64,000 bases of DNA from Clostridium sp. (GTDB lineage Bacteria; Bacillota; Clostridia; TANB77; CAG-508): assembly GCA_018371855.1 (NCBI GenBank), contig JAHAKD010000001.1:219478-283477 (forward strand). Direction: 5' to 3'. Positions 17,200 to 57,818 of this stretch are shown in pieces. The number at the start of each line of letters is the position of its first letter. Within the stretch, counting starts at the first letter, position 1. Made by a program: the position numbers and the translations under genes. The notes under the pieces are model-generated. The model was not told the origin of the DNA and searched no databases. It saw only the letters and a list, made by a program, of their open reading frames with translations.

Positions 17200-17202
17200 A
17201 AC

Positions 17203-17258
17203 AATGCAATATTTTTGAAATATTTTTACCAAAAACTACTAACTTTTTATACTATAAT
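17203..17258 (+). promoter_or_regulatory. Conserved promoter cassette, subtype II (P2, upstream of the sortase operon)
   Basis: AATGCAATATTTTTGAAATATTTTTACCAAAAACTAC...TATAAT. Confidence 0.55.
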
Positions 17259-17288
17259 TTTTTTATTGTAAATAAGAAAAGGAGGTTT

Positions 17289-20160: not shown

Positions 20161-20928
20161 ATGAATATACAACAAGGATATTTTTATTTCATTTCAGATT
20201 TATATTTTGATAGAGTACAAGATAAAGAATTGTTACAAAATAAAGAAAGTGGAACCAAAAGACCAGCTTATTATTGTTTCAAAGATAGTAATAATAATAG
20301 AATCTTTTGGTTTGTTCCTATTTCTAGTAGAGTTGAAAAATATAAAAAAATATATAATCATAAAATACAAAAACAAAAGAATAAAGGAATAAAAAAGCCA
20401 AAAGTTGATACTATCGTTTTTGGTAAAATTTCTGGAAAAGAAAATGTATTTTTAATACAAAACATGTTTCCTGTAATTGATAAATATATTATTGATACTT
20501 TTCTTAGAAAAAATGCTTTAGTTTCAATAGATGATAAAACAAAAAAAGAGATAAACCTAAAAGCTAATACAGTATTATCTTTAGTAAACAAAGGTATTAA
20601 AAGTATGGTATTTCCAGATATATTAAAATTGAAAGGAATTATGAAAGATGAAATTTTAAAACAACTTGAAATTGAAGATATATTTAACAATAAAAAACTT
20701 ACATTTATAGATGAATTTAAAAACATTATTAGTAATGCAATTAATAAAGAAGATATATCTTTATACCTACAATACATAAAAGATTCCAATATATTATCAG
20801 AATATACTAATATTTTAAATTCTAGTGATGATATTACTAAAATAAAAACAGACATAATATTAAAAACAGACGAATTGTTTAATGTAGAAGAAAACTCTGA
20901 CGAAGAAACAAATGAAGATGAAGTTTAA
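20161..20928 (+). CDS. toxN: Type III toxin (ToxN/AbiQ/TenpN-superfamily endoRNase-like) with ~85-aa C-terminal extension ending in the acidic tail TNEDEV
   Basis: FYFISDLYFDRVQDKELLQNKESGTKRPAYYCF...WFVPISSRVEKYKKIY resembles the ToxN/AbiQ/TenpN N-terminal pattern. The repeat-terminator-toxin architecture also fits. Confidence 0.65.
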   Translation: MNIQQGYFYFISDLYFDRVQDKELLQNKESGTKRPAYYCFKDSNNNRIFWFVPISSRVEKYKKIYNHKIQKQKNKGIKKPKVDTIVFGKISGKENVFLIQNMFPVIDKYIIDTFLRKNALVSIDDKTKKEINLKANTVLSLVNKGIKSMVFPDILKLKGIMKDEILKQLEIEDIFNNKKLTFIDEFKNIISNAINKEDISLYLQYIKDSNILSEYTNILNSSDDITKIKTDIILKTDELFNVEENSDEETNEDEV

Positions 20929-21079: not shown

Positions 21080-21140
21080 TTTTTTGTTAAAAATTACTTA
21101 TTTTTTGTTTTACCATTTATGGCAAGGAGGAAAAGAGAAA

Positions 21141-23909: not shown

Positions 23910-24278
23910 GTGAAGAAAAAAACAACTTTTTTAAAGAAAATTAACAAAATTACTAGCCTAGTAACTTTAGGATTACTTGGTATGCAAAATACAGTTTTTG
24001 CAGATGTAGTTGAGGAAGCTGGTGGTGGAGGTTCGATAAGAGATTCTAAAATTGGTCAAGGAATGTTCAATTTAGTAAAAGATGTAACAGGAACATTACA
24101 ATGGATTTTACCAGTTGTTGGTGCATGCTTCATTGTTTACTATGTAATAAGAATACAAACAGGAGAAGAACAAGACGCAATGAGATATAAAAAATCTATA
24201 ATAAGAGTATTAATTTGTATAGTTGTTGGTGTATTAGCAGTTACAATAATTAATTTAATATCAAAGTACTTTGTTTAA
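23910..24278 (+). CDS. VirB2/TrbC-like small membrane protein (pilin-like T4SS component)
   Basis: Signal peptide, then TM1 (LQWILPVVGACFIVYYVI), a charged loop (TGEEQD) and TM2. GTG start 9 nt after GGGAGGG. Confidence 0.5.
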   Translation: MKKKTTFLKKINKITSLVTLGLLGMQNTVFADVVEEAGGGGSIRDSKIGQGMFNLVKDVTGTLQWILPVVGACFIVYYVIRIQTGEEQDAMRYKKSIIRVLICIVVGVLAVTIINLISKYFV

Positions 24279-25950: not shown

Positions 25951-26571
25951 ATGTCAGCTATTGTATTAGATAAAAAATTTTTTGATAATAATAAAAGATT
26001 TGAATTAAATGTAATAAATAAAGAAGGAAGAATAGCAACATTAAAAAAGCAAATTGATTTATTTCATATATTAAAATCAAGACATGATTTTAATAAAAAA
26101 GAAGAAAGAAATTGGGCTGTTCAACATGGTCTATTTGAAAAATTTTGGTATGATTATGCACACCCAGAATTTGACCAAATGAACGCAAGAGGTATCAGTG
26201 TTCCAAATGTTTTAAATGAAATAATAAGACATCAACAAGAATACGGCTTAAATGTAATATCTTGCATATATGATAAAAAATGTATGTATAATGTGATGAA
26301 TAGTTTAATAATAAATTTAAAAGATACTACTAAAAAAGAAAATGTAATAAAAAGTTGTAAAAGATATATCAAAAATTTACAAAATAATATCAAATATTAC
26401 AGAAAAAATTTAAATTCTAAAGAAGAAGAAGAAATAGAAAATACAAATATGCAGATTGCATATAACAATATAAAACATCTTCCAAACTTTAATGAAACTT
26501 TTTTAAAAAATAACGAAAAGAATTTAAGCCAAAACAATAATGATGAAGAAACAGAAGAAGATGAGCTATAA
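25951..26571 (+). CDS. Acidic-tail protein (C-terminus ETEEDEL), function unknown
   Basis: 206-aa ORF with RBS AGGAGGC. Confidence 0.65.
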   Translation: MSAIVLDKKFFDNNKRFELNVINKEGRIATLKKQIDLFHILKSRHDFNKKEERNWAVQHGLFEKFWYDYAHPEFDQMNARGISVPNVLNEIIRHQQEYGLNVISCIYDKKCMYNVMNSLIINLKDTTKKENVIKSCKRYIKNLQNNIKYYRKNLNSKEEEEIENTNMQIAYNNIKHLPNFNETFLKNNEKNLSQNNNDEETEEDEL

Positions 26572-26648: not shown

Positions 26649-27503
26649 ATGAACCAAAATACTTATATCAATGTAAAAATGACAAAACAAGAAGCAATAA
26701 AATATTATGCAAATAAAATAGTCGAAGATTCAATTGAAGATTGTATGGAATTAAATTATTGCATGACAAATGAATATTATGAAGATAATGGATTTGTAAA
26801 AGAAAATCAAGATGAAATATTAGAAGAAATTAAAAAAGATGAAAGAATAGCAGATGTATATTTAAACAAATCAAGTAAGCCATATACCTTTGATATGGTA
26901 TTTTGGTCTGACTATTGTCCTGGATATTATGAAGATTATACAATGTCAAGGTTTATTCAAAATGATATAATAAAAGACTTCATAGATCAATTAATAAAAA
27001 TAAAAGATAATAGCATTTTCATACATAATACAACTACACAAAACATTATAAATAAATTACTAACAGCAAATAACTTCATCGTTTCATTATCAGAAGAAGA
27101 AAAAGAAGGTGCTAATAATATGTTAAAAGAATTTATTTGTGGCACAGGATTTTTTTATAAATATTTAGATAAAGACAAAGTTGTTGTAAATAAGGAAAAT
27201 ATAGCAGAATTAATAACAGAATTACAAGAAAAATATTACCAATTAGAGATATATAAAGATAGTAAACATATAAAAGATATATCATCAGAAGATATAGATG
27301 AAATGTTGAAAATATATGAAAAAGACAAGATTTATCCTGAAAAATATATTGGGTTATTTATATGTAAAGATGATAAAACAAAAACTTATTTAGCAATAGA
27401 TAACAGAAATGGAGATATGTATATAGAAGAATTTAAAACAGAAAAAGAATGTATGGATTATTTATTAGGAGAAGAAGATCAAGAGGAGGAAGATGAACTA
27501 TGA
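26649..27503 (+). CDS. Acidic-tail protein (QEEEDEL) with YxAIDNxxG module
   Basis: 284 aa. Contains GLFICKDDKTKTYLAIDNRNGDMYIEEF, a module shared with 53537-54208 and 57819-58754. Confidence 0.65.
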   Translation: MNQNTYINVKMTKQEAIKYYANKIVEDSIEDCMELNYCMTNEYYEDNGFVKENQDEILEEIKKDERIADVYLNKSSKPYTFDMVFWSDYCPGYYEDYTMSRFIQNDIIKDFIDQLIKIKDNSIFIHNTTTQNIINKLLTANNFIVSLSEEEKEGANNMLKEFICGTGFFYKYLDKDKVVVNKENIAELITELQEKYYQLEIYKDSKHIKDISSEDIDEMLKIYEKDKIYPEKYIGLFICKDDKTKTYLAIDNRNGDMYIEEFKTEKECMDYLLGEEDQEEEDEL

Positions 27504-28567
27504 TAATTAGAAACAAAGAAACAAAGGAATATATTCCTGTAAAAAATAAATATGGATATTCTAGTTTAGATTTTCAAACTGCTTTTCTTTATATGAGTAG
27601 ACTTCCAGAAAAAGAAAGAAATACTTTAGAAATATATGATAGGGAGCAAAATAAGATAATAGAACCTAAAAAATATGTATCAAATGATAGATATTTACTT
27701 TTCTTAGATAGTAAAGGAATTAATTTAGAAGATTATGCTATGGGAAAAGTTGAATTTAATACTAATGTTGAATATATGGAATTTATCGATAATCTCTCTC
27801 TAAAATTTGAAAATGATATAGGAAAACCTGTTTTATCTAATCAAGATGAATTTACAGATTATATGAAATATAAAGTATTAGGTGCTATTGCATTTAATGA
27901 AGCTTTAAATAATTTAGGAGTGGGAATCATAACTTCATCACCACAGATGAGTTATATGCTAGATAAATATAATATTTCGGAAGAAACAAATTTATCTTTA
28001 TACAAAAGAATTTCTGATAAATGGGAACAAGGTCAAAAATTAAGAATAGTTAGTAATTATAAAGAAGAAGTATTAGACAAAATTCCAACAAAATATTTAG
28101 ATAAATATTTAAAAGTTCTACCCAATGAAAAAGCAGATTCACATGAATTGTATAGAGATATTTCTAAGTATAAAAGAATTGTAGAAAATATTGATAAAAT
28201 AGAAGATAAAAAAGAGCCTGTTAAATTTTTAATTAATTATTCTGAAAATAGGGAATTAAGAAAAGATGATGTTTTAAATTTTAAAGAAATGGAAAGTAAA
28301 ACATACTTGGCAACATTAGAAGTAAAAGCAAGAAATAATGAAGATTCAAAGAAATATGGAGAAGAATTTCATACTTACGACAAAGTAGATTTTACAATAA
28401 TTTTAGATGATAGAAAAGATTTTAAAATTTATTTAGATAACAGAGAAGATATTGGCGATTATCAAAGTTTTAAATCATTTATGAAAAATACTTACATAGA
28501 TGAATTTAATAATAAAATAACTAAAATGTTAAATGAAGCAGAAGAAAGTGAGGAAGAATCTATTTAA
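27500..28567 (+). CDS. Acidic-tail protein (EAEESEEESI), function unknown
   Basis: 355 aa with ATGA-coupled start. The last 10 aa are identical to those of 35236-35688. Confidence 0.65.
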   Translation: MIIRNKETKEYIPVKNKYGYSSLDFQTAFLYMSRLPEKERNTLEIYDREQNKIIEPKKYVSNDRYLLFLDSKGINLEDYAMGKVEFNTNVEYMEFIDNLSLKFENDIGKPVLSNQDEFTDYMKYKVLGAIAFNEALNNLGVGIITSSPQMSYMLDKYNISEETNLSLYKRISDKWEQGQKLRIVSNYKEEVLDKIPTKYLDKYLKVLPNEKADSHELYRDISKYKRIVENIDKIEDKKEPVKFLINYSENRELRKDDVLNFKEMESKTYLATLEVKARNNEDSKKYGEEFHTYDKVDFTIILDDRKDFKIYLDNREDIGDYQSFKSFMKNTYIDEFNNKITKMLNEAEESEEESI

Positions 28568-30707: not shown

Positions 30708-31331
30708 ATGGGTAAGTTCAAATTATTTAGTCGTTCTAATAAAAATAAATCAGGGCAAAAAGAAGAAATATCAGCAAATACATTTTTAAATATTAGAACT
30801 GTGCAAGATGGAAAAATCTATACAATAGACAATAAAATTTTAGGAATTTTAAGAATATATCCAAAAAATTGTAACTTAATGAGCCAAGATGAAAGAAAAG
30901 CACATGCAAGAGTTCTAACCTCTAATATGGCTACAGAACTAAAGCCATTTAAACTGTATTTTGCAAATCGACCAGTAGATTTACAAAGAAATCAAGACTA
31001 TCAGGCTATGCTTATGGATAATGAAGCGAATTCTACTAAGTTCTATCTTTTAAATCAAAGAATGAAGTCGTTTGGTATGTTGTCAGCAACAGGCAAAGCA
31101 CAAGAATCTGAAATTTACTTAATCATTTGGGAAACAAAACTAGATGACCATTCAGCAGTAGAAATTGATAAAAGATTAAATGAAATGAAAAGAAACTTAT
31201 CAAATGCAACATATAAAACAGAAATTTTAAATGATAAGCAAATAATTCAAGTCATTAATGGCTTTACTAATCCAATTACGGCATATTTAGAAGATCAAGA
31301 TTATATGGATAATGTAGTTCAAATAAAATAA
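30708..31331 (+). CDS. T4SS-associated protein resembling a stand-alone VirB4 N-terminal domain (tentative)
   Basis: RBS GGGAGGAG. LNIRTVQDGKIYTIDNKILGILRIYPKNCNLMSQDE...FKLYFANRPVDL resembles the N-terminal region of Gram-positive VirB4 proteins. Confidence 0.35.
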   Translation: MGKFKLFSRSNKNKSGQKEEISANTFLNIRTVQDGKIYTIDNKILGILRIYPKNCNLMSQDERKAHARVLTSNMATELKPFKLYFANRPVDLQRNQDYQAMLMDNEANSTKFYLLNQRMKSFGMLSATGKAQESEIYLIIWETKLDDHSAVEIDKRLNEMKRNLSNATYKTEILNDKQIIQVINGFTNPITAYLEDQDYMDNVVQIK

Positions 31332-31349: not shown

Positions 31350-34300
31350 ATGAGCAAAAAAATATTTAAAAATACAACTATTCTATTATTAATATTTTTC
31401 ATGATAATTCAAATTATATTACCTAGTCTAGTTCAAGCTAATTATACATTTCCTATGGACGCATATTTAGTTTCAAGTCATACAACACCATATATGATTT
31501 ATTATAAAGGGCAACGTTCACACGCTTCTTTTGTTACATACAATTATAATGGTGTAAACTATCCAGCATATTGTATGAATGATGGAAGTCCAGGAGCAGA
31601 AACAAATCCATATACTGTTCATGTTGATGGAGTATGGAATAATAATGCAATATGGAGAGTTGCATTTCATGGCTATCCTTATACAACGCCAGCAAGTATG
31701 GGATTAAATAGTGATGATGAAGCATTTTATGTAACGAAACATGCTATGTATTGTGTTTTAGGACAAAGAAATATAGCAGATTATTCACCAATGTCAGGAT
31801 ATGAAAGAGTATATAATGCTTTAGTAAATTTAGTAAATTATGGATTTAATGGAGGAGATGTATATCAATCAGCAAGAGTTGATATTACTAAAGAAGGAAA
31901 TTTATATAAAGATAATATTGGTGGAACTAACTATTATTCACAAAATTATAGAATCACTTCACCAGTTGAACTTGCAAGCTATGATGTAGAAAGATTGAAT
32001 TTCCCTTATGGCACTAAAATATTTAATATGTCAAATGGAGAACAATATAACTTTACAGGAGAACAAACTATTAAAGTTTCTATACCAGAAACAAGTATTA
32101 CTTCTGATGTAAATGGTACAGTAGTAGTACAAAATGCAAATTGTAAAACATATCCTATTTTATATGGAAACACATCAGTACCAGGTACTCAAAACTATTG
32201 TCTAGTCGGCGATCCATACGAATTTGCAGGAGCAAATATTAGTGAACAATTTAGAGGAAATGTTTCTACTATAACAGTAAATAAAACAGATGTAGAAACT
32301 AATCAAGCAATAAATGATACTGAATTTCAATTATTAAAAGATGGTCAAGTTTTACAAACTAAAACTACAGATGATAACGGAAAAGTAACATTTACAGATT
32401 TATATGCAGGAAATTACACAGTAAAAGAAACAAGAACTAATGATAATTATGTTCCAAATAATCAAGAACAACAGCAAAGCTTAATCTATAACCAAAATGC
32501 AACAATGAATTTAACAAATGAACATAAGAAAGGTACTTTAAAAGTAAATAAAATTGATAAAGATAATCATAAAATTCAGATGGGACATGTCTTATTTGAT
32601 GTATATTCACGAGAATTTGATAAAGTTATAGATACCATTAGAACTGATGAAAATGGTGAAATAACAATACCTAATATGAGAACTGGTACTTATACTCTAA
32701 AAGAAAAAGAAACAAATAAATGGTATACTTTAGCACCAGATACAGATGTAGAAGTTTTTTGGGAGCAAGAAAAGCCAGTATCTGAATATACTATAGAAAA
32801 TGAAAAGAAGAAAGGTCAAATTAAAATTTATAAATTTGATCAGGATTTTGCTTCAAATCCAGTTTCTTATGTAGAAGATGATAGTAATCTTCCAGACAAG
32901 ATAATGCTTGAAGGAGTTAAGTTTGATATATATGATGATAGTGGAAACAAAGTACAGACAATAACAACAGATGAAAATGGTGAAGCTACTAGTATGAGAT
33001 TACCTGTTGATACAACTTATACAGTAAAAGAGGTAGAAACGTTAGATAATTATTATTTAAATACAGAAACACAAGAAGTTCATTTTAATAATGTTGATGG
33101 TGATCAACAGACTTTATATGTACTAAATGAGCATAAAAAAGGAAATGCTAAAATCACTAAAGTAGATAAAGATGACCATGATACTAAATTAGGTGCAGTC
33201 GAATTTGATGTTTATTCTTATGAATTTGATACAGTTATAGGTCGTGCTACAACAGACGCAAATGGAGAAATTAACATAGAAAACTTAAGAACAGGTAAAT
33301 ATCAATTAAGAGAAACAAAGACAAATGATTTTTATAAATTAGCAGTTCCAGTTGATTTTGAGGTAAAAGATAAAGAAACTACTGATGTAGTAGTAGAAAA
33401 CGAAAAGAAAAAAGGACAAGTAAAAATCATTAAAGTTGATAAAGATAATAATCAAATAAAATTACAAGGTGTAAAATTTAATATTTATGATAAAAATGGA
33501 AAACTAGTAGATACAATAACTACTGATAAAAATGGAGAAGCAACAAGTTCAAAACTTCCATTAATGTATAACCCTTATTCAGTAAAAGAAGTTGAAACTA
33601 ATATGTTATATGAATTAAAAGAAACACCACAAACAATAGAATTAGAAGAAGATCAAATAAAGAATTTAACTTTTGAAAACGAAAGAAAGAAAGGTCAATT
33701 ACAAGTAACTAAAGTTGATTTAGATAATCCAGATACAAAACTTGAAGGAGTTACATTTGAAATATACAAAGAAGATGGAACAAAAATAGATACTATGACA
33801 ACAGGCGAAAACGGAATTGCAACAAGCCATAGACTTCCAGCTTATGATAGATATATTTTAAAAGAAGTAAAAACATTAGATAATTATAGATTAAATACTA
33901 AGGAAACACCTTTTGTTCTTGCATGGAATCAAACTTTAAAATTAACAGTACAAAACGAAAAGAAGAAAGGTCAAATACAAATTTATAAATTTGACCAAGA
34001 TTATCCATTACACATGAATAGAAGTTCAGATACAGAAGAAACTCCAGAAATTATGCTTGAAGGTGTTAAGTTTGAAATATATGATAAAGACCAAAACTTA
34101 GTAGATACTATAGTAACAGACAAAGATGGAACAGCAACAAGTAAAGAACTTCCAATAGACAATATTTATACAGTAAAGGAAGTTGAAACTAAAGAAAATT
34201 ATATATTAAATAATGAAACACAAGAAGTTCAATTTACAGAAGATAAAGAAATACAAACATTAGAAATTGAAAATGAACATGAGAAAGGTAATGTTAAAAT

Positions 34301-35153
34301 TACAAAAGTAGATAAAGATAGTCCAGATTTAGTTTTACCTAATGCAAAATTTGACATATATTCTTATGAATTTGATAAAGTTGTAAATACAGTTACAACA
34401 AACGAAAAAGGCGAAATTAATATAGAAAACTTAAGAACAGGTAAATATCAATTAAGAGAAATTGAAGCTCCAGAATTTTATAATAAATCTGATACTATTG
34501 ATTTTGAAGTAAGGAACAATGAAACTACTATTTTAAATGTAGTAGATGAAAAACAAAAAGGAACTATTGTAATCAATAAAACAGATTTAGATGACCAAAA
34601 TATTAAACTTGAAGGAGTTAAGTTTGAGATATACGATAAAGACCAAAACTTAGTAGATACATTAGTAACAGATAAAAATGGAATGGCAACAAGCAAAGCT
34701 CTTCCAATAGACAATGTTTATACAATAAAAGAAATAGAAACAGCTGATAATTATTATCTAAGTGATAAAACTTATGAGGTTCAATTTACAGAGGACAAAG
34801 AAGTTAAGACAGTAAACATTACTAATGAGCATGAAAAAGGCAATGTAGATATATATAAACATGATTCAGAGGAAGAAAAGGCTTTACAAGGAGCAGAATT
34901 TGAACTTACTAACCTAACAGAAAACAAAGTAATTGGCAAATATACTACAGATGAAAATGGAAAAATAAATATAACTGGATTAAGAACAGGAGTTTACTTA
35001 TTAAAAGAAACAAAAACTCCAGAGGGATATAAATTATCTAAAGATATTACATTTGAAGTAAAAGCTGATTCTACAACAACTTTAGATATAGCAGAATTAA
35101 AAATTGATAAACCAGTTACAACAATGGAAGTATTACCAAAGACAGGATTCTAA
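31350..35153 (+). CDS. Large surface adhesin: signal peptide, thioester-like N-domain, 10 Cna-B/SpaA-type repeats, C-terminal LPKTGF-stop
   Basis: YPAYCMNDGSPG plus TKHAMYCVL (thioester-domain-like). Repeats start NE[HKR][KE]KGx[IV]x[IV]xKxD and contain TTDxNGExxxxxLxxGxYxxKE. Ends VLPKTGF*. Confidence 0.85.
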   Translation: MSKKIFKNTTILLLIFFMIIQIILPSLVQANYTFPMDAYLVSSHTTPYMIYYKGQRSHASFVTYNYNGVNYPAYCMNDGSPGAETNPYTVHVDGVWNNNAIWRVAFHGYPYTTPASMGLNSDDEAFYVTKHAMYCVLGQRNIADYSPMSGYERVYNALVNLVNYGFNGGDVYQSARVDITKEGNLYKDNIGGTNYYSQNYRITSPVELASYDVERLNFPYGTKIFNMSNGEQYNFTGEQTIKVSIPETSITSDVNGTVVVQNANCKTYPILYGNTSVPGTQNYCLVGDPYEFAGANISEQFRGNVSTITVNKTDVETNQAINDTEFQLLKDGQVLQTKTTDDNGKVTFTDLYAGNYTVKETRTNDNYVPNNQEQQQSLIYNQNATMNLTNEHKKGTLKVNKIDKDNHKIQMGHVLFDVYSREFDKVIDTIRTDENGEITIPNMRTGTYTLKEKETNKWYTLAPDTDVEVFWEQEKPVSEYTIENEKKKGQIKIYKFDQDFASNPVSYVEDDSNLPDKIMLEGVKFDIYDDSGNKVQTITTDENGEATSMRLPVDTTYTVKEVETLDNYYLNTETQEVHFNNVDGDQQTLYVLNEHKKGNAKITKVDKDDHDTKLGAVEFDVYSYEFDTVIGRATTDANGEINIENLRTGKYQLRETKTNDFYKLAVPVDFEVKDKETTDVVVENEKKKGQVKIIKVDKDNNQIKLQGVKFNIYDKNGKLVDTITTDKNGEATSSKLPLMYNPYSVKEVETNMLYELKETPQTIELEEDQIKNLTFENERKKGQLQVTKVDLDNPDTKLEGVTFEIYKEDGTKIDTMTTGENGIATSHRLPAYDRYILKEVKTLDNYRLNTKETPFVLAWNQTLKLTVQNEKKKGQIQIYKFDQDYPLHMNRSSDTEETPEIMLEGVKFEIYDKDQNLVDTIVTDKDGTATSKELPIDNIYTVKEVETKENYILNNETQEVQFTEDKEIQTLEIENEHEKGNVKITKVDKDSPDLVLPNAKFDIYSYEFDKVVNTVTTNEKGEINIENLRTGKYQLREIEAPEFYNKSDTIDFEVRNNETTILNVVDEKQKGTIVINKTDLDDQNIKLEGVKFEIYDKDQNLVDTLVTDKNGMATSKALPIDNVYTIKEIETADNYYLSDKTYEVQFTEDKEVKTVNITNEHEKGNVDIYKHDSEEEKALQGAEFELTNLTENKVIGKYTTDENGKINITGLRTGVYLLKETKTPEGYKLSKDITFEVKADSTTTLDIAELKIDKPVTTMEVLPKTGF

Positions 35154-35174: not shown

Positions 35175-35210
35175 GGCAACTATTGAAATAAAAGATAGTT
35201 GCCTTCTTTA
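35175..35210 (+). terminator. Terminator (GCAACTAT...ATAGTTGC family)
   Basis: GGCAACTAT-N11-ATAGTTGCC. The same stem sequence recurs at 41875 and 53481. Confidence 0.55.
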
Positions 35211-35235: not shown

Positions 35236-35688
35236 ATGAGTGAAACATATCAAGAGATGAAAAAAAGACAAGAAGAAGAATTAACAAAAATTCCAAAAAA
35301 GTTTGCTTTTACAGATGAACAATTTAAACAAGGAATGAAAGAATTGGGCTTAAATGAAAATGATACAGATAAAATTGTAGGTATTGGAGCAGGTGGCTTC
35401 ATGAAAAAAACAGATGTAGAAGATTATAAAGGATTGCAAAAAAAACATTTTAAAGAATTTTGGAAAGAAATTGTTAATGATAAAGTTGGAGATAAGTTTA
35501 TAAAAGATATGTTTTTATATGAATTAAATAATCACGAATATGGTTATACGAATGATATTACAGATACACTAATGAGTTTAGGATTAAGTGATAAAGATAT
35601 TAGAGAAAATGAAAACTTAAGAACAGGCTTAATACTAGCAGAAAAGGAAATATTAGAGGCAGAAGAAAGCGAAGAAGAATCTATTTAA
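35236..35688 (+). CDS. Acidic-tail protein (EAEESEEESI); conserved small protein type found on conjugative elements
   Basis: 150 aa with RBS AGAGGGA. Contains FAFTDEQFKQGMKELGL...FLYELNNHEYGYT. Confidence 0.65.
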   Translation: MSETYQEMKKRQEEELTKIPKKFAFTDEQFKQGMKELGLNENDTDKIVGIGAGGFMKKTDVEDYKGLQKKHFKEFWKEIVNDKVGDKFIKDMFLYELNNHEYGYTNDITDTLMSLGLSDKDIRENENLRTGLILAEKEILEAEESEEESI

Positions 35689-35709: not shown

Positions 35710-35857
35710 GTATTTTAATTGATTTAGAAAATTATTTTAAAAATAGAGAAGTAGAAGTATCTGAAATGAAACTTTAGAAGAAGCAGAAAAAATGCTATAT
35801 AAACATAAACAAAATTTTTTAAAAAATGGAACAGAAAAATACAAGGAGGAAACTAAT

Positions 35858-36517
35858 ATGGATAAATTAAATATAAAAGTAGAATTAAAAAAAATAAACA
35901 AGGAAGATTCAAACTTAAAAGGATTTGCTGATATAACGTTAGCAGGAGTTACAATAAAAGATGTTGCAGTAAAAGAAATTCCTACAAAAGAAGGAACAAT
36001 AGTAGCTTTTGATACACCTAATATTGATAAATACCAAGATAAAGAAGGAAATATGAAATACATAAAAAGTGTAAGCATAAATACTAAAAAGGATAACTTA
36101 ATACCAGAGATAAGAAAAGCTTTATTAGAAGCCTTAACATCAAACGAAACTAATGAATATGGAAAGACAGTTATAAATCATGAAACAAATATTGAATATG
36201 ATAAAGATTATGTGAAATCTTATATTAGACCATTATCTTTTGAAAATAATCCTTATATAAAAGCAACTGGTAGAATACTAGTAGGTGGTGTTTTAGCATT
36301 AAATAATGTACGATTAAATGAAGGCGTTTCAAAGGAAGGTAATGAATTTCAATCAATTTCTGTTCCAGAAAAAAAGATTGATCAAGAATATAAACCTTTA
36401 GTATATCTTGATAAAGATTTAAGAGATAAAATAAAAGATAATTTAGTTTCAGAATATAATAAAGAAACTAAGGAACAAGAAGCAAATAATGAAGAAGCAG
36501 AAGAAGATGAGATTTAA
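35858..36517 (+). CDS. SpoVG-like N-terminal domain protein with extension and acidic tail (EAEEDEI)
   Basis: ATG 35858 after AAGGAGGAAACTAAT. LNIKVELKKINKEDSNLKGFADITLAGVTIKDVAVKE is SpoVG-fold-like. Confidence 0.5.
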   Translation: MDKLNIKVELKKINKEDSNLKGFADITLAGVTIKDVAVKEIPTKEGTIVAFDTPNIDKYQDKEGNMKYIKSVSINTKKDNLIPEIRKALLEALTSNETNEYGKTVINHETNIEYDKDYVKSYIRPLSFENNPYIKATGRILVGGVLALNNVRLNEGVSKEGNEFQSISVPEKKIDQEYKPLVYLDKDLRDKIKDNLVSEYNKETKEQEANNEEAEEDEI

Positions 36518-36750: not shown

Positions 36751-38580
36751 GTGAAAAAAGTAGAAATAGAGCAAATACCAATTAATAATGACTTATTAAA
36801 CTTAATTACTCCACAGGGGATAGTTCTAAAATACAATAAAGTACAACTAGGGGAGATTACATCTAAACTTCAATATGTTGCAGGTTATCCTTCTACTGTA
36901 AATTTAGGCTGGCTAAGTAATTTAAAAGATATTCCAAATACTACTGTTTCTTTAACTGTTACACCAATAGAAGATGTTCAGGCTTATGTAGATGGTGTTT
37001 CAAAAGGTATTACAGCATTAAGAAATACTTTAAACTCTACACAAAATGAAGCAACAAGGCAAATGTGCGAATTTAAAATTGCTTCTGCAGAAAGAATTAT
37101 CAAAGATATTACTGTAGATAATATTCCATACATAAATCTTTCAATTATTTTCAAAACAAATGGTGAAACAGATCAAGATTTCCAAAACAATGTGAAATTA
37201 ATAAAAAATAGAGTTGCAGGTATGGGATTAAAAGCAAGAGTTCCAGCATATTTACAAAAAGAAGCTTTAAAACAATCTGCTCCATACGATACATCATATA
37301 AAGAAATAACAGATATTTCTAATAAGACTATGAGCTTAAATGCTTTATTTTCAGGATTACCATTTAGTGGCTCTGGATTAATTGACGCAGAAGGTTATTA
37401 TATTGGAGTAGATGAAAATGGCAGAATGGTAGCTCCTTCATTTTTCTTTAAAGGAAATGATAGAACAAACTCAAATATTATAATTGAAGGTTCTTCTGGC
37501 TCTGGTAAATCATTCTTAGCAAAAAAGATTATGCTAAATGAATATTTAAATGGAACAAAAATATGGATAATAGATCCAGAGTCTGAATATCGACCAATCT
37601 GTAAACTATTAGGTGGAAAATGGATTGACTGTTCAGGTGGAGAAGGAGAATTTGTTGGAAGAATAAATCCACTTCAAATAAATCCTGTTCCTACAGCTGG
37701 CTTTGAAGATGAGGAAGAAGATAGTGAATACAATACAACAAAATCAGCATTAGCTTTGCACTTAGATTTCTTAACTACATTCTTTAAATTATATTATCCA
37801 GAAATTACATCACTTGAAATGAGCTTGCTTAACGAAACTTTGGAAGAATTATATAAAAGTTTTGGAATAAATTATGATACAGATATTACAAATTTTAAAA
37901 CTATTCAATTTCCAATTATGCAAGACTTATATAGTTTATTAGAGGAAAAAGTAAAAGAAAAGAGTAATCACCAAAAAGAATATGAAGAATTAAGAGCAGC
38001 ATTAAGACAAATGGCAATAGGAAACAATAGTGAAATATTTAACGGACATACAACAATACAATTTGATTCAGATTTTATTTGCTTAGATGTATATTCTCTT
38101 CAAGGAGCAAGTGAAAACGTTAAAAGATGTCAATATTTTAATATTTTAAGATACTGCCAAGATCAATCATTTAAAGATAGAAGAGAAAGAGATTTAGTAT
38201 TCTGTGATGAAGCATATTTGCTTATTGATAAAAAAGTTCCTCAATCAATAGAATTTATGAGAAATTTTTGTAAAAGAGCAAGAAAATATGAATCTGGCTT
38301 AGTTACAATTACACAAAGTTTAGTAGATTTCTTAGCTCCAGAAGTAAAACAATACGGACAGGCTTTGCTTGATAACTCTACATATAAATTTTTCTTTGGA
38401 ATAGATGGTAAAGACCTTGAAGAAGTTGTCGACTTGTATAATTTAAATACAGAAGAAAAAGCAATACTTTCACAAAAAGAAAAAGGACGTGGCTTATTCT
38501 TCGTAGGTTCAGGACATCAATTAATAAATGTTAAACCTTTAGAATTTGAAATGCCTTATTTAGTTGGTGGTGGTAGATAA
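36751..38580 (+). CDS. virB4: VirB4-family T4SS ATPase
   Basis: Walker A GSSGSGKSF. Walker B LVFCDEAYLL. The N-domain pattern YVAGYPSTVNLGWLSNL is typical of Gram-positive VirB4 (PrgJ/TrsE-like). GTG start after GGAGGG. Confidence 0.85.
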   Translation: MKKVEIEQIPINNDLLNLITPQGIVLKYNKVQLGEITSKLQYVAGYPSTVNLGWLSNLKDIPNTTVSLTVTPIEDVQAYVDGVSKGITALRNTLNSTQNEATRQMCEFKIASAERIIKDITVDNIPYINLSIIFKTNGETDQDFQNNVKLIKNRVAGMGLKARVPAYLQKEALKQSAPYDTSYKEITDISNKTMSLNALFSGLPFSGSGLIDAEGYYIGVDENGRMVAPSFFFKGNDRTNSNIIIEGSSGSGKSFLAKKIMLNEYLNGTKIWIIDPESEYRPICKLLGGKWIDCSGGEGEFVGRINPLQINPVPTAGFEDEEEDSEYNTTKSALALHLDFLTTFFKLYYPEITSLEMSLLNETLEELYKSFGINYDTDITNFKTIQFPIMQDLYSLLEEKVKEKSNHQKEYEELRAALRQMAIGNNSEIFNGHTTIQFDSDFICLDVYSLQGASENVKRCQYFNILRYCQDQSFKDRRERDLVFCDEAYLLIDKKVPQSIEFMRNFCKRARKYESGLVTITQSLVDFLAPEVKQYGQALLDNSTYKFFFGIDGKDLEEVVDLYNLNTEEKAILSQKEKGRGLFFVGSGHQLINVKPLEFEMPYLVGGGR

Positions 38581-38581
38581 T

Positions 38582-39289
38582 ATGGAAGAAAACAATGGAA
38601 ATGTGTTCGATACACTTTTTAGCTTAGGTAGAAGCTTAAAAACTAAACTTATTATAGGAATATTTATGGGAGGCTTTATATTTATTATCTTCTTTGTTTT
38701 GATAATTGGTACAGCTTTTGCTTCTGATAAAGATAAAAATGAGGGTGCAGATTCAAGTGGAAATGAATATTCAGATACTGATAATACTTCTGGAAGTTCA
38801 GAAGTAGGAGAAATTATAAATCAAGATGGATTAAGTTGGATAGGAAGCGACCATACATTTTGTTCACCTGTTCAAACACTAACTGGTATAGGTTCAGGAT
38901 TTGGTAAAAAAGGTTCGGCATGGAGTTTAGGGTATCACACAGGACTTGATTTATTTGGAAATCCTAGAACGAATATAGTAGCTGTATATCCTGGAAAAGT
39001 AGTACAAGCAATAAATGCAGGAAGCTATGGAAATCATGTTGTAATAGAACATAATTATAATGGATTTAAGTTTTATACTTTATATGCACACATGACAGCA
39101 GGTTCTCTTAAAGTCAAAACAGGTCAAGAAGTCCAACAAGGGCAAGTTTTAGGAGTAATTGGTCAAACAGGTAATGCTTTTGGTATTCATTGTCATTTTG
39201 AAGTAAGATACCCACAAAATGCTTTTCAATCTTCTTCACTTCATGATCCTATATCAGAACTATATAATGGTGGAATAAAAAATAGATAG
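38582..39289 (+). CDS. Membrane-anchored M23/LytM peptidoglycan hydrolase
   Basis: HTGLDL, HVVIEH and HCHFEV motifs with an N-terminal TM helix. The ORF track starts at 38564. Confidence 0.8.
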   Translation: MEENNGNVFDTLFSLGRSLKTKLIIGIFMGGFIFIIFFVLIIGTAFASDKDKNEGADSSGNEYSDTDNTSGSSEVGEIINQDGLSWIGSDHTFCSPVQTLTGIGSGFGKKGSAWSLGYHTGLDLFGNPRTNIVAVYPGKVVQAINAGSYGNHVVIEHNYNGFKFYTLYAHMTAGSLKVKTGQEVQQGQVLGVIGQTGNAFGIHCHFEVRYPQNAFQSSSLHDPISELYNGGIKNR

Positions 39290-40073: not shown

Positions 40074-41204
40074 ATGAAAAGAAATTTTAAAAGTTTAGTG
40101 ATAGTTACAAGTCTAACAGTAGTTAGCATGGGAATTATCGCATTAAATAATATTAGTCTTGCATTTACAGAAAATCAATTAGAACTTAATGGAGATACAT
40201 TAAAAAGAAGTTTCTTTGTAGAATCAGATGATGAAATAAATTTTAAAACATTTATAAATTCAGATAATAACAAGACATACCAAGATGAAGAAGGAAACAC
40301 TTATACCATTCATGATGTAATAGCAACGGAAAGTGATACTAACGCTAAAGAAGTAAGTGATACAAAAACATTAAATAATCTTACTACAAATGACCAAACA
40401 GCAATTTTAAATCAAGCAGGAGATACGTTAATCTATGATAAAGACGGATTTTTTGGAACTTTAAACTATAGTAATATGGATATTCAAGAAATAGACACAG
40501 GCACTTACGAAAGATTATTGTCATTAAATATTCCTTTTTCAGGATATTCTAAAAATGATTTAAATAATATATCAAAAACTATAACAAGGAACGGAAGAAA
40601 TTGGACTTTAATTAATGTAGACTGGACTCCAGATAGTATGCAAAATGTAGATGGAAGTCAAGTTCCTGTAACATATTCAGGAACTATGCATTATCAAACT
40701 GTAGGTGTATTTTCAAATCCAAAACAATATAATGTAACAATAACTTATACAGGAACAGTAAATAAAGAGAATCCAGATTATATTTATACAGCAACTTATA
40801 AAAAAGAAATGCCTGTAGAAGCACCTGTAGAAGAAAAAACAAATTATACACCTATAATAATTACTCTATCAGGTGCAGGAGTTGTACTATTAATAATCTT
40901 ATTATACTTCTTATCAAGAAATGCTAAAATTTATAGTAAAAATGCTAATGGAAACTATGAATTAGTAAAGAAAGTACATATTAGTAGTAATAATCCTAAA
41001 ATAGATCTATCATCTCTATCTAGTTGCACTAGCAAAGTTTCAAATGGTGTAATTTATATAAGTAATTCACCATCGAACTTATATAAAGTTTCTTTAAAAG
41101 ATTCACTTTTCAATAAAGTTTCTGGAAAAGATTTAGAAATTAAACTAACTAATATTTCTAAAAAAATAAGAATTGTAAATAAAAATATTGAATTTAAAAT
41201 TTAA
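40074..41204 (+). CDS. Secreted/membrane-anchored T4SS-operon protein
   Basis: Signal peptide and a C-proximal TM helix (IIITLSGAGVVLLIILLYFL). Confidence 0.6.
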   Translation: MKRNFKSLVIVTSLTVVSMGIIALNNISLAFTENQLELNGDTLKRSFFVESDDEINFKTFINSDNNKTYQDEEGNTYTIHDVIATESDTNAKEVSDTKTLNNLTTNDQTAILNQAGDTLIYDKDGFFGTLNYSNMDIQEIDTGTYERLLSLNIPFSGYSKNDLNNISKTITRNGRNWTLINVDWTPDSMQNVDGSQVPVTYSGTMHYQTVGVFSNPKQYNVTITYTGTVNKENPDYIYTATYKKEMPVEAPVEEKTNYTPIIITLSGAGVVLLIILLYFLSRNAKIYSKNANGNYELVKKVHISSNNPKIDLSSLSSCTSKVSNGVIYISNSPSNLYKVSLKDSLFNKVSGKDLEIKLTNISKKIRIVNKNIEFKI

Positions 41205-41570: not shown

Positions 41571-41864
41571 ATGAAAAAATATTATTATAACATAAAAGAT
41601 ACTTATATAAAATTTTGGAAAAATACTAATAATAAATTTTATGATTTAGAACTATATGATAAAAACTTCATAAGATTTTACAACGGTAAAATAAAATTTT
41701 CTCCATTACCGGTTCCTTTAACTAATAAAATCTGTATTAATAAAATTCTAAAAGAAATTTTAGCATACTTAAATATTTCTAAAGATGAATTTAAAAATAT
41801 CGTTGAGATAAAAAATAAAGAAACAATAGATAAATTAGAAAATATTGAAGTTAGAATTGAATAA
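41571..41864 (+). CDS. Hypothetical protein
   Basis: 97 aa with RBS AAGGAGAG. Confidence 0.55.
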   Translation: MKKYYYNIKDTYIKFWKNTNNKFYDLELYDKNFIRFYNGKIKFSPLPVPLTNKICINKILKEILAYLNISKDEFKNIVEIKNKETIDKLENIEVRIE

Positions 41865-41874
41865 TTGTAAATGA

Positions 41875-41906
41875 AAGCAACTATTGAACTATATAGTTGC
41901 TTTTTT
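41875..41906 (+). terminator. Terminator (GCAACTAT...ATAGTTGC family)
   Basis: AAGCAACTAT-N8-ATAGTTGCTT followed by a T-run. Confidence 0.65.
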
Positions 41907-41981: not shown

Positions 41982-43052
41982 ATGAATAAAAAAGATTTAA
42001 ACAGATATTATGAATTTATAAATAAATATGAAGCTTATACCAAGAATAGACTAAAAAGTTTTAGTTCTAAAGATGAGGAAGAAGGATTTTTAAAATTTAT
42101 AGATGAGATGAAAAAAAATAGTGAAACTATAAAAGAAGAATGTTTTAATCATTTTTTAAACATGGCAAATATTGATGAAGATAAAATAATGAAAGCATTT
42201 AGATTTGATAGTAGATTTGGAGATGTCTTTATTAGTGAAGATAACATATATGGAAAAGCAAAAGATATAATTGATTATTTTGAAAATGAATTTGCTCATT
42301 CTGCTGAATATTTTAATGAAGAAGATGAAGAAGAAAAAGAAAATTTTGAAAATATGTTAAAAGAAACTATTGAAGAATTAAAAAATACAAAAGAAAAATA
42401 TGTTGTAATGGGTATTCACCCAATGGACGGACAATTCCATATTTTAGATACAGAAGAAGAGCTATACGAATTAATCTCACTTGCAAAAGAAGCACAAGAT
42501 GAAATAAATAAAACTATGGAAAAGGAAGAATTTCATATTGTAAATAGAAAAGATGAAGAACATTACTTTAGAATAGATCTAAAAGATAATTCTAGTTGTT
42601 ATGTAGCAATTACAGATGATATTGAATCTATTGCAAGACAAGATGTAATTAGTGAAGCTCTAAATGATAACCTAATTACAGAAGGCGAATTAGATAACAT
42701 AGCAGAAATATCAGCTATTGCAAAAACAGAATTTGAATGTATGAAAAGTCATAATAGAAATTATCCATGTACTACTTATAAAGACTTATTAAATAGAATT
42801 TTAGGTGATTGTAATGTAGGAATAAATAGTAAAGAAGCAAGAGATAAGATTGATGAAAATACAAAGAATTTGGATAAAAAAGAAACTATAAATTCTTTAG
42901 AAATTAATGAAATAAAATTATATATTTTAGGATTAGGCGATGAACAATTTTATGTAACAAGAAATTCTAATGAAGTATTTAATAAAGCACAATTACTTGA
43001 TAGTATCGAACAGGAAAAATCAAGAGAAAGTGAAGAGGAGGAAGAAATTTAA
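41982..43052 (+). CDS. Acidic-tail protein (SEEEEEI), function unknown
   Basis: 356 aa with RBS AGGGGGA. Confidence 0.65.
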   Translation: MNKKDLNRYYEFINKYEAYTKNRLKSFSSKDEEEGFLKFIDEMKKNSETIKEECFNHFLNMANIDEDKIMKAFRFDSRFGDVFISEDNIYGKAKDIIDYFENEFAHSAEYFNEEDEEEKENFENMLKETIEELKNTKEKYVVMGIHPMDGQFHILDTEEELYELISLAKEAQDEINKTMEKEEFHIVNRKDEEHYFRIDLKDNSSCYVAITDDIESIARQDVISEALNDNLITEGELDNIAEISAIAKTEFECMKSHNRNYPCTTYKDLLNRILGDCNVGINSKEARDKIDENTKNLDKKETINSLEINEIKLYILGLGDEQFYVTRNSNEVFNKAQLLDSIEQEKSRESEEEEEI

Positions 43053-43053
43053 G

Positions 43054-44280
43054 ATGAATAATAATATTAAATTAGAAGAAGGAAAAATTTATAAAGGTGA
43101 AAATGGAATTAATTATTTTGTTATACAAAGTAGAAAAAATATAGCATTACTAAAAGCAGATGAATACGTTATAGCCAATGGAACAATGCAAGATAATAAT
43201 ACAAATGAAATTTCATGGAATTATGGAAGTTACTATAATAATTTACTTAGTGGAACATTAAAATTTAATGATATTGCACTATCTGAACAAGAAAAAATTC
43301 AAGACTTAAAACAAGGATTAAATGAAGTTGATAATTATACTCTATTTTCTAGTGTAGTTGAACATATTCAAAATAAAGATAAATACATAATAACAGATAA
43401 TGATTTAATAAAATTAAGAAATCTTTATGAATTTGAAGCAGAGGAAGATATTAAATCATTAATACCTGATAACATAAAGAATACGGAGCATGAATTAAAT
43501 TTTGATAATATAAAAAAAGAAATAATAGATTATTTAAAGGAAATGGATATAGATCTAAATAAAATTCCAGAAAAAAAGATTGAAGAAATGGCAGAAGATG
43601 TATTTAAATATAGCATTGATACAAATGATACTCCAAGTAATCTTATTTGGGCAGTTGATTATTTTAGAGAAGATATAGACAAGTTAAAAGAAGAAAAGAA
43701 ACAAAACAAAAGCTATTTACCATATATTATAGAAAAAAGTAAAGATATTTCTTTAGTTAAATATTTATCAAAAGAAACTCTATATTCTGTTGAAATTCAA
43801 AATAAAGACATTGGTATGTCTATATATATGGGAACAGATTTTAATAAAGCAAAAGAAATTTACGAAAAGGAAAAATTATTTATGAATATTCAAAAAGCTT
43901 CTAATAATATCTTGAATAATGCTGATGTAGAAGTCTATCGAGAAAAACTAAATAAAGCTGTAATTGGAACTAATTTTTTATTAGGAAGAAAATCTACATT
44001 AATAGAATATTTACAAAATGAGTTATCAAATGCTGATAAAGATTTTTATGAATATAACAATAATGAAAAAGAAGATTTTAAACAAAAAACCGAAAAAATC
44101 TTAAATGAATTAAAACAAGAAAAAAATTCTTTAGAACCTATGTATTTATATGTAAATCCTATAAATAAAAATTATGAAATAGCAAATTCCGAACAAACAA
44201 TAAATAAATTAAATGAATTGAATACCAAAGTAAATGAATATACAAACGAATCAGAGGAAAGTGAGGAAGATGAACTATGA
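43054..44280 (+). CDS. Acidic-tail protein (ESEEDEL); paralog of 55044-55691
   Basis: ATG lies 1 nt after the previous stop, with the SD GAGGAGGA inside the upstream tail codons. The NEVDNYTLFSSVVEH and IDYLKEMDIDLNKIPEKKIEEM blocks are shared with 55044-55691. Confidence 0.65.
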   Translation: MNNNIKLEEGKIYKGENGINYFVIQSRKNIALLKADEYVIANGTMQDNNTNEISWNYGSYYNNLLSGTLKFNDIALSEQEKIQDLKQGLNEVDNYTLFSSVVEHIQNKDKYIITDNDLIKLRNLYEFEAEEDIKSLIPDNIKNTEHELNFDNIKKEIIDYLKEMDIDLNKIPEKKIEEMAEDVFKYSIDTNDTPSNLIWAVDYFREDIDKLKEEKKQNKSYLPYIIEKSKDISLVKYLSKETLYSVEIQNKDIGMSIYMGTDFNKAKEIYEKEKLFMNIQKASNNILNNADVEVYREKLNKAVIGTNFLLGRKSTLIEYLQNELSNADKDFYEYNNNEKEDFKQKTEKILNELKQEKNSLEPMYLYVNPINKNYEIANSEQTINKLNELNTKVNEYTNESEESEEDEL

Positions 44281-45509
44281 ACATAAAAATAGGAAAATTT
44301 AATTTTATTAACAATAGAGAAAATAGAATATTCTTAAGTGGATATAACATTGATGAACGATTATTTAATTATTTCTATTTAGATGGAAAAGAAGATACCC
44401 TTTATGTAAGTTCAAGAGATAATTTTGATAAAATAAATGATTTTAAATATAATAATTATTCAGAATTTGACTTAGAAAGAAAATTATCAAAGAATTTTCT
44501 TGTTCTTGACTATAATATGGAAATAAAAAATGCTGTAAATAGATTTATAAATGATAAAGCTAGACAAATTTATAGAACAGAATCATATTCACGTTATAAG
44601 TTATACAAAGATATTTCTTTAAGTGAAATACTTTCAGTAGATAAAAATTCTAAATTTTCTTTAAGACATACTTACGATTCTTATATAGATGTAGAAGATA
44701 ATAAAATAATAGTAGATGGAATAAAATTAGATCCTTACACACAAGTCATTTTAAATTTAGAAGATTTTTATAAAAATGGAAGATTTAATAATGAAATAAA
44801 AGCAACTTTAATAAAATTAGAATTGCAAGATAATATAGCTCCTAAATTCGTTTCAACTTTAATTGAAATTAATAGTTTTTTACAAAATAAAAATTCTGTA
44901 AATATATTATTTAATGATTGTGAAAAAGCTAAAATCGAACCTAGTTGTGGATCGTTTCTATATTTTGGGCATAATTATATAGAATTATCATTAACAGAAA
45001 AAACATGTAATTCATTGAAAAAAACAAACTCTAATATTAATCCAAATAATTTAAAATTAGGAGATTTACAGGGTTTATCTTATGGTAAAGAAGTATTAAA
45101 TATTGAATCAAAAAATTTAAAAAATATTGTAAATCAAATAGTTATTTCTCCTAAAGATAAATTATTCTATAGATTAGATGTATTAGAAAAAAATATAAAT
45201 GAAGATTATAGTAATATTTATAATGAAAATATAAATCTAAATTTACCATCTGATTTAAAAACACTTAAAAACTTAGATGAATTAGAAAGTATAACTTATG
45301 GTACAGGAGTTAAAGAAATAGATAATAAAATAAGTGATTTATCAAAAAAACTATATGACATAAATATTATTAGAAATACTAATAATGTCGAAGAATTTAA
45401 TTATGCAATAAAAGATTTAAATGATTATGAACTAAATTCTATTGCAAATATAAAATCGTACATAATTTCTAATGAGGAAAGTGAAGAAACAGAGGAAGAT
45501 GAATTATGA
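44277..45509 (+). CDS. Acidic-tail protein (ETEEDEL), function unknown
   Basis: 410 aa with ATGA-coupled start. Confidence 0.65.
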   Translation: MNIKIGKFNFINNRENRIFLSGYNIDERLFNYFYLDGKEDTLYVSSRDNFDKINDFKYNNYSEFDLERKLSKNFLVLDYNMEIKNAVNRFINDKARQIYRTESYSRYKLYKDISLSEILSVDKNSKFSLRHTYDSYIDVEDNKIIVDGIKLDPYTQVILNLEDFYKNGRFNNEIKATLIKLELQDNIAPKFVSTLIEINSFLQNKNSVNILFNDCEKAKIEPSCGSFLYFGHNYIELSLTEKTCNSLKKTNSNINPNNLKLGDLQGLSYGKEVLNIESKNLKNIVNQIVISPKDKLFYRLDVLEKNINEDYSNIYNENINLNLPSDLKTLKNLDELESITYGTGVKEIDNKISDLSKKLYDINIIRNTNNVEEFNYAIKDLNDYELNSIANIKSYIISNEESEETEEDEL

Positions 45510-56725: not shown

Positions 56726-56727
56726 TT

Positions 56728-57804: not shown

Positions 57805-57818
57805 AGAGGTGAATATAA

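Follow-up and report, generated by a model that had tools for sequence, protein, structure and literature searches.

A thioester adhesin family of gut conjugative elements that ends one residue after LPxTG: a candidate minimal sortase signal

Introduction

By the textbook rule, a sortase substrate carries an LPXTG motif followed by a membrane-spanning segment and a basic tail, and the last two hold the protein in the membrane until the sortase acts. The window analysed here, a stretch of 64,000 nucleotides from contig JAHAKD010000001.1 of a Clostridium sp. assembly (GCA_018371855.1), has a G+C content of 24% and is essentially one integrative conjugative element. It encodes two large surface adhesins that stop one residue after LPKTG, and so raises the question of whether such an ending can still be a sortase signal, and if so how it would work. 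The adhesins belong to a conjugative element with a type IV secretion system (T4SS), and their short ending is a real, conserved and non-random feature.

Two adhesins stop one residue after the sortase motif

The two adhesins and their endings are located as follows.
31350 to 35153, plus strand: adhesin 1 (1267 aa), with a signal peptide (...VQA/N), a thioester domain, approximately ten SpaA/CnaB-type repeats and LPKTGF (PF08341; PF17802 in 10 stretches)
35133 to 35153, plus strand: LPKTGF and TAA (TTA CCA AAG ACA GGA TTC TAA), the tail-less sortase motif at the C-terminus of adhesin 1
51353 to 53455, plus strand: adhesin 2 (700 aa), with a signal peptide (...VYA/D), a class II thioester domain, two SpaA domains, a C-terminal beta domain of approximately 190 aa and LPKTGF (from Pfam, PDB and AlphaFold2 (AF2)/Foldseek comparisons)
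53435 to 53455, plus strand: LPKTGF and TAA (TTA CCA AAA ACA GGA TTC TAA), the tail-less sortase motif at the C-terminus of adhesin 2

The open reading frame (ORF) of adhesin 1 ends in ...MEVLPKTGF (in longer form ...KPVTTMEVLPKTGF) with its TAA stop at 35151-35153, and that of adhesin 2 ends in ...LSIKKLPKTGF with TAA at 53453-53455. These are the endings named in the original prediction, which was made from the sequence alone, and both its coordinates and its sequences proved exact. The 21-nt pattern TTACCAAARACAGGATTCTAA occurs exactly twice in the window and not once in 100 shuffles. Of the parts of a canonical signal, the LPXTG pentapeptide is present near the C-terminus of both adhesins (as LPKTG), whereas in place of the 15-20 or so hydrophobic residues expected after it there is one residue (Phe) and then the stop, and a positively charged C-terminal tail is absent from both. 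A basic tail is seen only in a minority of canonical relatives, for example ...LRKKDKNIDNAK. In the AF2 model of adhesin 2 the last beta-strand stops at residue 685, and residues 686-700 are modelled as coil with falling confidence (predicted local distance difference test, pLDDT), which leaves approximately nine flexible residues between the last domain and LPKTG. A six-frame scan of the window for LPxTG-like motifs near ORF ends gave no further credible candidate; the few other matches were without the Leu and had no anchor-like tail after them.

Several more in-frame stops lie downstream of both adhesin genes, and no hydrophobic segment is encoded 3' of either gene in any downstream frame. 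RNA folding placed a terminator-like hairpin behind each.
35176 to 35202, plus strand: hairpin after adhesin 1 (GCAACTAT...ATAGTTGC, then UUCUUU)
53484 to 53508, plus strand: hairpin after adhesin 2, with the same stem sequence as that after adhesin 1, then U6

The folding energies are -13.6 kcal/mol after adhesin 1 and -17.1 kcal/mol after adhesin 2 (z -4.2 and -3.4, respectively); a simple terminator scanner missed both hairpins because their loops are at least 9 nt long. It had been argued that further stops and a terminator after each gene make read-through implausible, and this is borne out by the in-frame stops, by the stable hairpins with their U-rich tract and by the lack of a hydrophobic frame.

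The hairpin stem (GCAACTATTGAA...ATAGTTGC) was also observed to be repeated, with three copies in the window (35176-35202, 41877-41900 and 53484-53508) against none expected. Two of these come directly after the adhesin genes and the third (41877-41900) comes after the ORF at 41571-41864; the stem may belong to a terminator cassette used in common, or it may be a small repeat.

The ending is conserved across the family

The exact adhesin 1 protein was read on nine contigs from different samples, and 24 contigs that were read carry a relative of adhesin 2 with 92% identity and an identical ending, which appears in 55 index blocks. Assembly error as the source of the short ending is therefore excluded. 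A tail reached by read-through or frameshift was sought over 50 codons downstream, in three frames, at 69 loci and was rejected, as the sole hydrophobic matches, at a few loci, were N-termini of the unrelated next gene.

The locus set comprised 71 complete adhesins, 69 in related loci and two in the window. All except two of these end in LPxTG plus one residue (LPxTG+1; 67 in loci L001-L084 and the two in the window), one ends three residues after the motif, and one, in locus L028, has a canonical tail. In the 69 LPxTG+1 endings, X is R in 45, K in 21, V in two and I in one (LP[KRVI]TG), and the last residue is F (19), C (16), K (15), M (7), Y (5), R (4) or E (3). The stop codon is TAA in 47 and TAG in 22, and never TGA, which may merely reflect the 23-29% G+C of all 86 loci.

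The same picture was obtained from wider searches. Among 120 database relatives of adhesin 2 (33-100% identity), approximately 100 end in LP[KR]TG plus exactly one residue, and a subset carries the normal tail LPRTGGSDLGTFIATGIIIGINAIGLLIALRKKDKNIDNAK. When the C-terminal domain of adhesin 2 was compared with 1.84 billion cluster representatives (50% identity), 550 matches were returned; the best 150 were classified as LPxTG+1 (121), +3 (seven), +0 (one), canonical (five), intermediate (two), long non-hydrophobic tail (one) and fragments or motif-less (13). Thus the hydrophobic and basic parts are missing in about 80-97% of family members. The original prediction had proposed a search for the truncated ending in homologous adhesins, where it is indeed shared by 69 of 71 locus adhesins and by 121 of the best 150 cluster representatives. 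It had also named homologues with a normal tail as a possible sign of artefact; these do exist, as a small minority (one of 71, and five of the best 150), and they leave the claim intact.

In alignments of 17 and 33 relatives (36-96% identity) the L, P, T and G are invariant, and the preceding linker and the final residue are variable. The LPxTG+1 ending is kept among relatives down to approximately 30% identity while its last residue varies. Since both the motif and the length after it are fixed and the last residue is not, selection acts on motif and length rather than on the identity of the final residue. Over the last domain, proteins with and without the canonical tail share 86-87% identity and match right up to LPRTG, and the canonical-tail forms fall into at least three separate similarity groups. 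Locus L028, the one canonical-tail locus of the set, carries the sortase module of the tail-less loci, and as the proteins are near-identical, the same enzyme clade would serve both tail forms.

Both proteins are thioester adhesins

Features of a Sec-type signal peptide are present in both adhesins (a basic n-region, a hydrophobic core and an AXA-type site, VQA/N and VYA/D), and the AF2 model of adhesin 2 begins with a helix at residues 3-23 followed by a low-confidence linker. The thioester Cys is invariant and lies in a [YFL]-C-hydrophobic-polar motif, which is YCMN in adhesin 1 (Cys75, within YPAYCMN) and YCLN in adhesin 2 (Cys80). An invariant Gln follows approximately 210 residues after the Cys (Q281 of adhesin 1, within GTQNYC, and Q291 of adhesin 2); the corresponding pair in TIEpLS20 is Cys68/Gln256. 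This Gln, in the motif GTQ[ND]Y, probably forms the thioester. The residues of adhesin 2 that are invariant in the alignments are C80, Q291, L695, P696, T698 and G699. A further conserved motif of the thioester domain, A-[FY]-x-[AV]-T-K-[QHM]-A-[VI]-Y, has His in adhesin 1 (...AFYVTKHAMYC..., approximately 31700-31770) and Gln in adhesin 2.

The best solved relative of adhesin 2 in a phmmer search of the PDB is BaTIE of B. anthracis (6FWV, E 7e-30). The AF2 model (pLDDT 89.8) also matched 6FWV in Foldseek (E 1.9e-30), as well as 6FWY, the thioester domain (TED) of E. faecium TIE86 (template modelling score 0.65), and then many Gram-positive pilins. Relatives are labelled by NCBI as 'Cys-Gln thioester bond-forming surface protein' and all come from metagenome-assembled genomes (MAGs). 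On these sequence and model comparisons, both proteins are class II thioester (TIE) adhesins.

The element encodes its own sortase

The sortase and the genes that accompany it are as follows.
15737 to 17199, plus strand: two genes preceding the sortase module (396 aa, and a 91-aa membrane protein), with 30 and 29 phmmer matches in related loci just upstream of Y and the sortase
17289 to 17906, plus strand: element-encoded sortase (205 aa) with a membrane anchor at its N-terminus followed by a compact catalytic domain (PF04203, E 8e-24)
40074 to 41204, plus strand: protein Y (376 aa) with a signal peptide, a beta-rich ectodomain of approximately 240 aa, one transmembrane helix and a cytoplasmic domain, assigned by homology to the Y of relatives
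46934 to 48019, plus strand: protein X-like (361 aa) with an N-terminal membrane anchor, a long Ser/Gly/Thr-rich linker and a small conserved C-terminal domain (a weak but specific match, E 5e-5)

The statement that the element has its own sortase at 17289-17906 was thus confirmed by the PF04203 match. The catalytic triad His126 (AGHN), Cys187 (LITC) and Arg195 (LRLC) is visibly common to the aligned locus homologues, and the 90% consensus line of the alignment recovers just the ITC and RL motifs. Of the NCBIfam models, the enzyme passes just the generic TIGR01076, and its scores for the curated classes all fall short of the cutoffs (class E, 74.8 against a cutoff of 160; class C, 62.9 against 160; class D, 58.8 against 165; SrtD, 61.5 against 140). 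Its best PDB match is 4D70, SrtD of C. perfringens (E 2e-12). As judged from its sequence, the catalytic domain begins at approximately residue 80, straight after the membrane linker, with little space for a lid segment.

Of the 71 adhesin genes, 57 have a homologue of this sortase (median identity 36%) upstream in the same orientation, 52 of them within 4 kb. The module in relatives has the order: a protein of approximately 390 aa, a membrane protein of approximately 80 aa, the type I membrane protein Y, the sortase, X and the TED adhesin. Y stands directly upstream of the sortase, X stands directly upstream of the adhesin (within 500 bp for 45 of 71), and in most relatives Y, sortase, X and adhesin are contiguous. 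The window element holds two adhesins, Y is relocated, and the module is scattered over 36 kb (the first two genes and the sortase at 15737-17906, adhesin 1 from 31350, Y from 40074, X-like from 46934 and adhesin 2 from 51353).

Homology searches gave 26 matches for Y, 24 of them at 76% identity or more, and eight for X, swamped by its low-complexity linker. The AF2 model of Y (pLDDT 74.6) had no Foldseek match in the PDB at E <= 0.001. Two lysines of the Y ectodomain are conserved in at least 85% of 35 sequences, and no YPKN-like pilin motif is present in it.

The hosts and their wall

The T4SS includes a wall-cutting M23 enzyme, which implies that there is peptidoglycan in the host.
36751 to 39289, plus strand: VirB4-like ATPase (36751-38580) and M23 peptidoglycan hydrolase (38564-39289; PF19044, PF12846, PF01551)

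Among named genomes, the closest relative of adhesin 2 is from a MAG of Ca. Faecimonas intestinavium (91% identity). Ca. Faecimonas corresponds to GTDB CAG-877 of the order RF39, family CAG-611 (PMC8035907), and is placed by NCBI in Bacilli incertae sedis. A Y relative that is 88% identical is found in Clostridium sp. CAG:354. These matches suggest uncultured Firmicutes of the gut, of the RF39 type and with very AT-rich DNA, as the hosts of the element family. Most RF39 are predicted to have a wall with meso-diaminopimelic acid (m-DAP) peptidoglycan and a reduced set of penicillin-binding proteins (PMC10868615).

A proposed minimal sortase signal

We consider it somewhat probable (approximately 0.6) that the LP[KR]TG-X-COOH ending of these mating adhesins is maintained by selection as a genuine minimal sortase signal in a family of conjugative elements. 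From the ending itself, its conservation, the class of the adhesins and their genetic linkage to a sortase, we infer how cleavage, an acceptor and a replacement for membrane retention might be provided. The adhesins would be exported by Sec, and the membrane-anchored sortase of the element would recognise LPxTG and cut between Thr and Gly, freeing only a Gly-X dipeptide. The Thr carboxyl of the adhesin would then be transferred to a nucleophile of the envelope, most likely the m-DAP amine of a peptidoglycan precursor, after which the thioester head would project outward and grip recipient cells.

The single residue after Gly would be kept because the sortase needs the Gly in amide linkage, and the identity of that residue would be nearly free. 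With SrtA of S. aureus, the Gly of the motif 'cannot be a free carboxylate' (PMC5714338). If the same holds here, one extra residue is the smallest sufficient ending, which fits both the fixed length and the nearly free identity of the last position. The hydrophobic segment and basic tail would be dispensable, with the dedicated sortase presumably made together with its substrate and capturing the C-terminus as the adhesin leaves the translocon; it is a guess that the membrane proteins X and Y may help.

Peptidoglycan is favoured as the acceptor because no conserved protein nucleophile was found in X or the pilin-like protein of the T4SS, and Y, with its two conserved ectodomain lysines, has neither a pilin motif nor a fold that matches a solved structure; the M23 wall hydrolase and the predicted m-DAP peptidoglycan of RF39 were also counted for wall anchoring. 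The core of the original prediction, a real but non-canonical relationship between sortase and substrate, is supported by the family-wide LPxTG+1 ending and by the sortase homologues upstream. Among the three options it offered, sortase processing of a substrate that is not retained in the membrane is favoured, ligation to another protein is kept as an unlikely second, and a signal that works without the sortase is argued against by the conservation and the linkage.

Several points weigh against this proposal. Deletion of the hydrophobic domain or the charged tail of S. aureus protein A reportedly led to secretion with no anchoring (Schneewind, 1992/93), and on this argument a tail-less substrate should be captured inefficiently unless it is otherwise retained. 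The sortase is in no curated class, so its specificity and nucleophile are not inferable from relatives. It also lies 13 and 33 kb from its two adhesins in the window, where the linkage is drawn from the relatives, and the support as a whole comes from sequence comparison and gene linkage in hosts that are all uncultured MAGs. The link to the host of the window is itself indirect, through the 91%-identical Ca. Faecimonas adhesin and the 88%-identical CAG:354 Y.

Alternative explanations

The alternative that survives best, though we regard it as unlikely, is that the dedicated sortase joins the adhesin Thr to an amine on a protein of the conjugation machine (such as the Y ectodomain, X or a T4SS pilin-like protein) and not to peptidoglycan. 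This would give a covalent adhesin-channel or pilus-like assembly, in which a retention tail would be needless since the partner is itself anchored in the membrane. The stalk of the adhesins is built of pilin-type SpaA/CnaB domains, and the Foldseek matches include many pilins; the run of only nine or so flexible residues between the last domain and LPKTG is also as in pilins. The position of X within 500 bp upstream of 45 of 71 adhesins, that of Y directly upstream of the sortase and the two conserved lysines of the Y ectodomain can be counted on the same side, and thioester tip adhesins that a sortase joins to a pilus shaft are known, as in Cpa of S. pyogenes. However, neither X nor Y has a canonical pilin motif (YPKN-like), the sortase is far below the class C cutoff (62.9 against 160 bits), both X and Y also accompany the canonical-tail variant L028, and we know of no pilin that does not keep the full sorting signal.

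Two candidate acceptors were tried and rejected. X was discarded as a covalent acceptor as the alignment of its C-terminal domain holds no invariant lysine, and the oligo-Gly of the pilin-like protein at 23910-24278 was discarded as a sortase nucleophile as its Gly4 stretch is absent from homologues.

Less probable again is an ending that is independent of the sortase, with the adhesin secreted and either held non-covalently, as proposed for TIEpLS20, or acting as a soluble bridge; LPxTG-X would then be what is left of a former sorting signal, or would serve another protein as a docking epitope. TIEpLS20 does function with neither a sorting signal nor a sortase (PMC8092201), and the distance of the window sortase from both adhesins could be read in the same way. 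It is established that canonical substrates from which the anchor is missing are secreted. Yet a vestige would be expected to decay, and this family shows the opposite: overall identity falls to 30-40% with no change in L, P, T or G, and the stop stays in place although the final residue drifts. The sortase homologue upstream of 57 of 71 adhesins and the interchange of tail-less and canonical forms in near-identical proteins of the same module also argue against it.

The weakest alternative, that the tail was lost by assembly error or frameshift or is reached by programmed stop-codon read-through, is scarcely credible given the same ending in dozens of independent assemblies and genomes, the use of both TAA and TAG after the motif, the lack of a downstream hydrophobic frame other than the N-terminus of the unrelated next gene at a few loci, and the hairpin and U-tract terminators behind both adhesin genes.

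The conjugative element

The element carries genes for a topoisomerase, ParB and a relaxase-like protein, after which comes the sortase gene. Its T4SS genes encode a VirD4-type coupling protein, T4SS pilin-like proteins, TrbL/VirB6 and the VirB4-like ATPase, together with the M23 wall hydrolase, and two tyrosine recombinases lie near the right end of the window.
21084 to 23711, plus strand: type IV coupling protein (VirD4/TraG-like; PF02534, E 5e-60)

A megablast search of the adhesin 1 region against the PLSDB plasmids gave no match, and it is thus not a known plasmid of C. perfringens or another catalogued one. No tRNA genes were found in the window, so they offer no clue to the integration site.

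The VirB4-type ATPase is apparently split, with a 207-aa TraC-like N-terminal domain (PF26593) at 30708-31331 and a 609-aa P-loop part at 36751-38580. The N-terminal part lies just upstream of adhesin 1 and is followed 5.4 kb downstream by the P-loop part, with adhesin 1, a DUF7659 gene and a SpoVG-like gene in between, and this layout is repeated on independent contigs. The small T4SS pilin-like protein (PF18895, 23910-24278) has its Gly4-Ser stretch soon after the signal peptide.

A strongly acidic C-terminus, roughly E-E-x-E-E-D-E-[L/I]-stop, was noted in 18 of 71 plus-strand ORFs of the window against none of 38 minus-strand control ORFs, and in 174 of 1623 plus-strand ORFs of the related loci. 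In the window it is found in the regions 19146-19628, 20161-20928, 25951-26571, 26649-27503, 27500-28567, 35236-35688, 35792-36517, 41982-45509, 50237-51169 and 53537-58754. None of the proteins with this tail seen so far has a signal peptide, and the tail could be a C-terminal recognition signal for proteins passed to the coupling protein or the T4SS. The surroundings of adhesin 2 (50237-51169 and 53537-58754) contain defence or toxin-like genes, including a HipA_C-like kinase, several of them with the acidic tail. In the close relatives L001-L004, AbiEii and nucleotidyltransferase genes (9050-9751 and 14336-15364) lie near the adhesin.

Comparison with known systems

With the canonical tripartite signal the adhesins share the Sec signal peptide, the LPxTG pentapeptide and the association with a sortase that has the His/Cys/Arg triad, but they fail two of its three defining features. 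BaTIE (6FWV), SaTIE and EfmTIE86 have the same signal peptide, class II thioester domain, CnaB/SpaA stalk and C-terminal LPxTG, which in those proteins is followed by a transmembrane segment (PMC8092201). They rely on host sortases, whereas the window adhesins stop one residue past the Gly and have a dedicated sortase in the same element.

A functional parallel in a conjugation operon is TIEpLS20 (gene 34 of the B. subtilis plasmid pLS20), a class II TED adhesin needed for mating-pair formation, for which the mode of attachment to the cell is an open question (PMC8092201). It differs in that it has no LPXTG at all and functions independently of a sortase, whereas in the window family LPxTG is strictly conserved and linked to a sortase. 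The C. perfringens plasmid pCW3 is likewise conjugative and has its own sortase; SrtD, of its tcp conjugation region, is required for efficient transfer according to PMC8225981, which cites Revitt-Mills 2021, and no tail-less substrate is reported for pCW3 (the C-terminus of CnaC was not looked at). C. perfringens SrtD (4D70) gives the best PDB sequence match of the window sortase, though a weak one (E 2e-12), and the window enzyme falls far short of the class D cutoff.

Engineered tags used in sortagging (LPETGG, LPETG-X) provide a biochemical precedent, as a soluble protein that ends in LPXTG plus at least one residue is a competent substrate in vitro (PMC5714338). Such tags are made in the laboratory and combined with concentrated purified enzyme, whereas here the minimal form is the natural ending in vivo. 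In the open-access text searched, no account of tail-less LPxTG-X substrates as a natural family was found. The present family is large (550 clusters at 50% identity, with about four-fifths of the best 150 tail-less) and keeps LPxTG plus one residue together with a sortase of its own.

Processing of the motif, if it occurs, would mean that sortase substrates need not always be retained in the membrane, and that the sortase and its motif are a natural enzyme-tag pair that evolved for a free C-terminus and could serve protein ligation. Should the adhesin instead be linked to a mating-machine protein, for example to the Y ectodomain, a T4SS-dedicated sortase would be ligating a membrane-free substrate, a distinct mode of sortase use that we think improbable; it would mean a Gram-positive-type conjugation system with a covalently built, thioester-tipped, pilus-like adhesive structure. 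The ending bears in addition on the way in which TIEpLS20 and other mating adhesins are attached to the donor surface, and gives this question of Gram-positive conjugation a concrete handle in elements that carry genes between gut bacteria which are abundant but uncultured.

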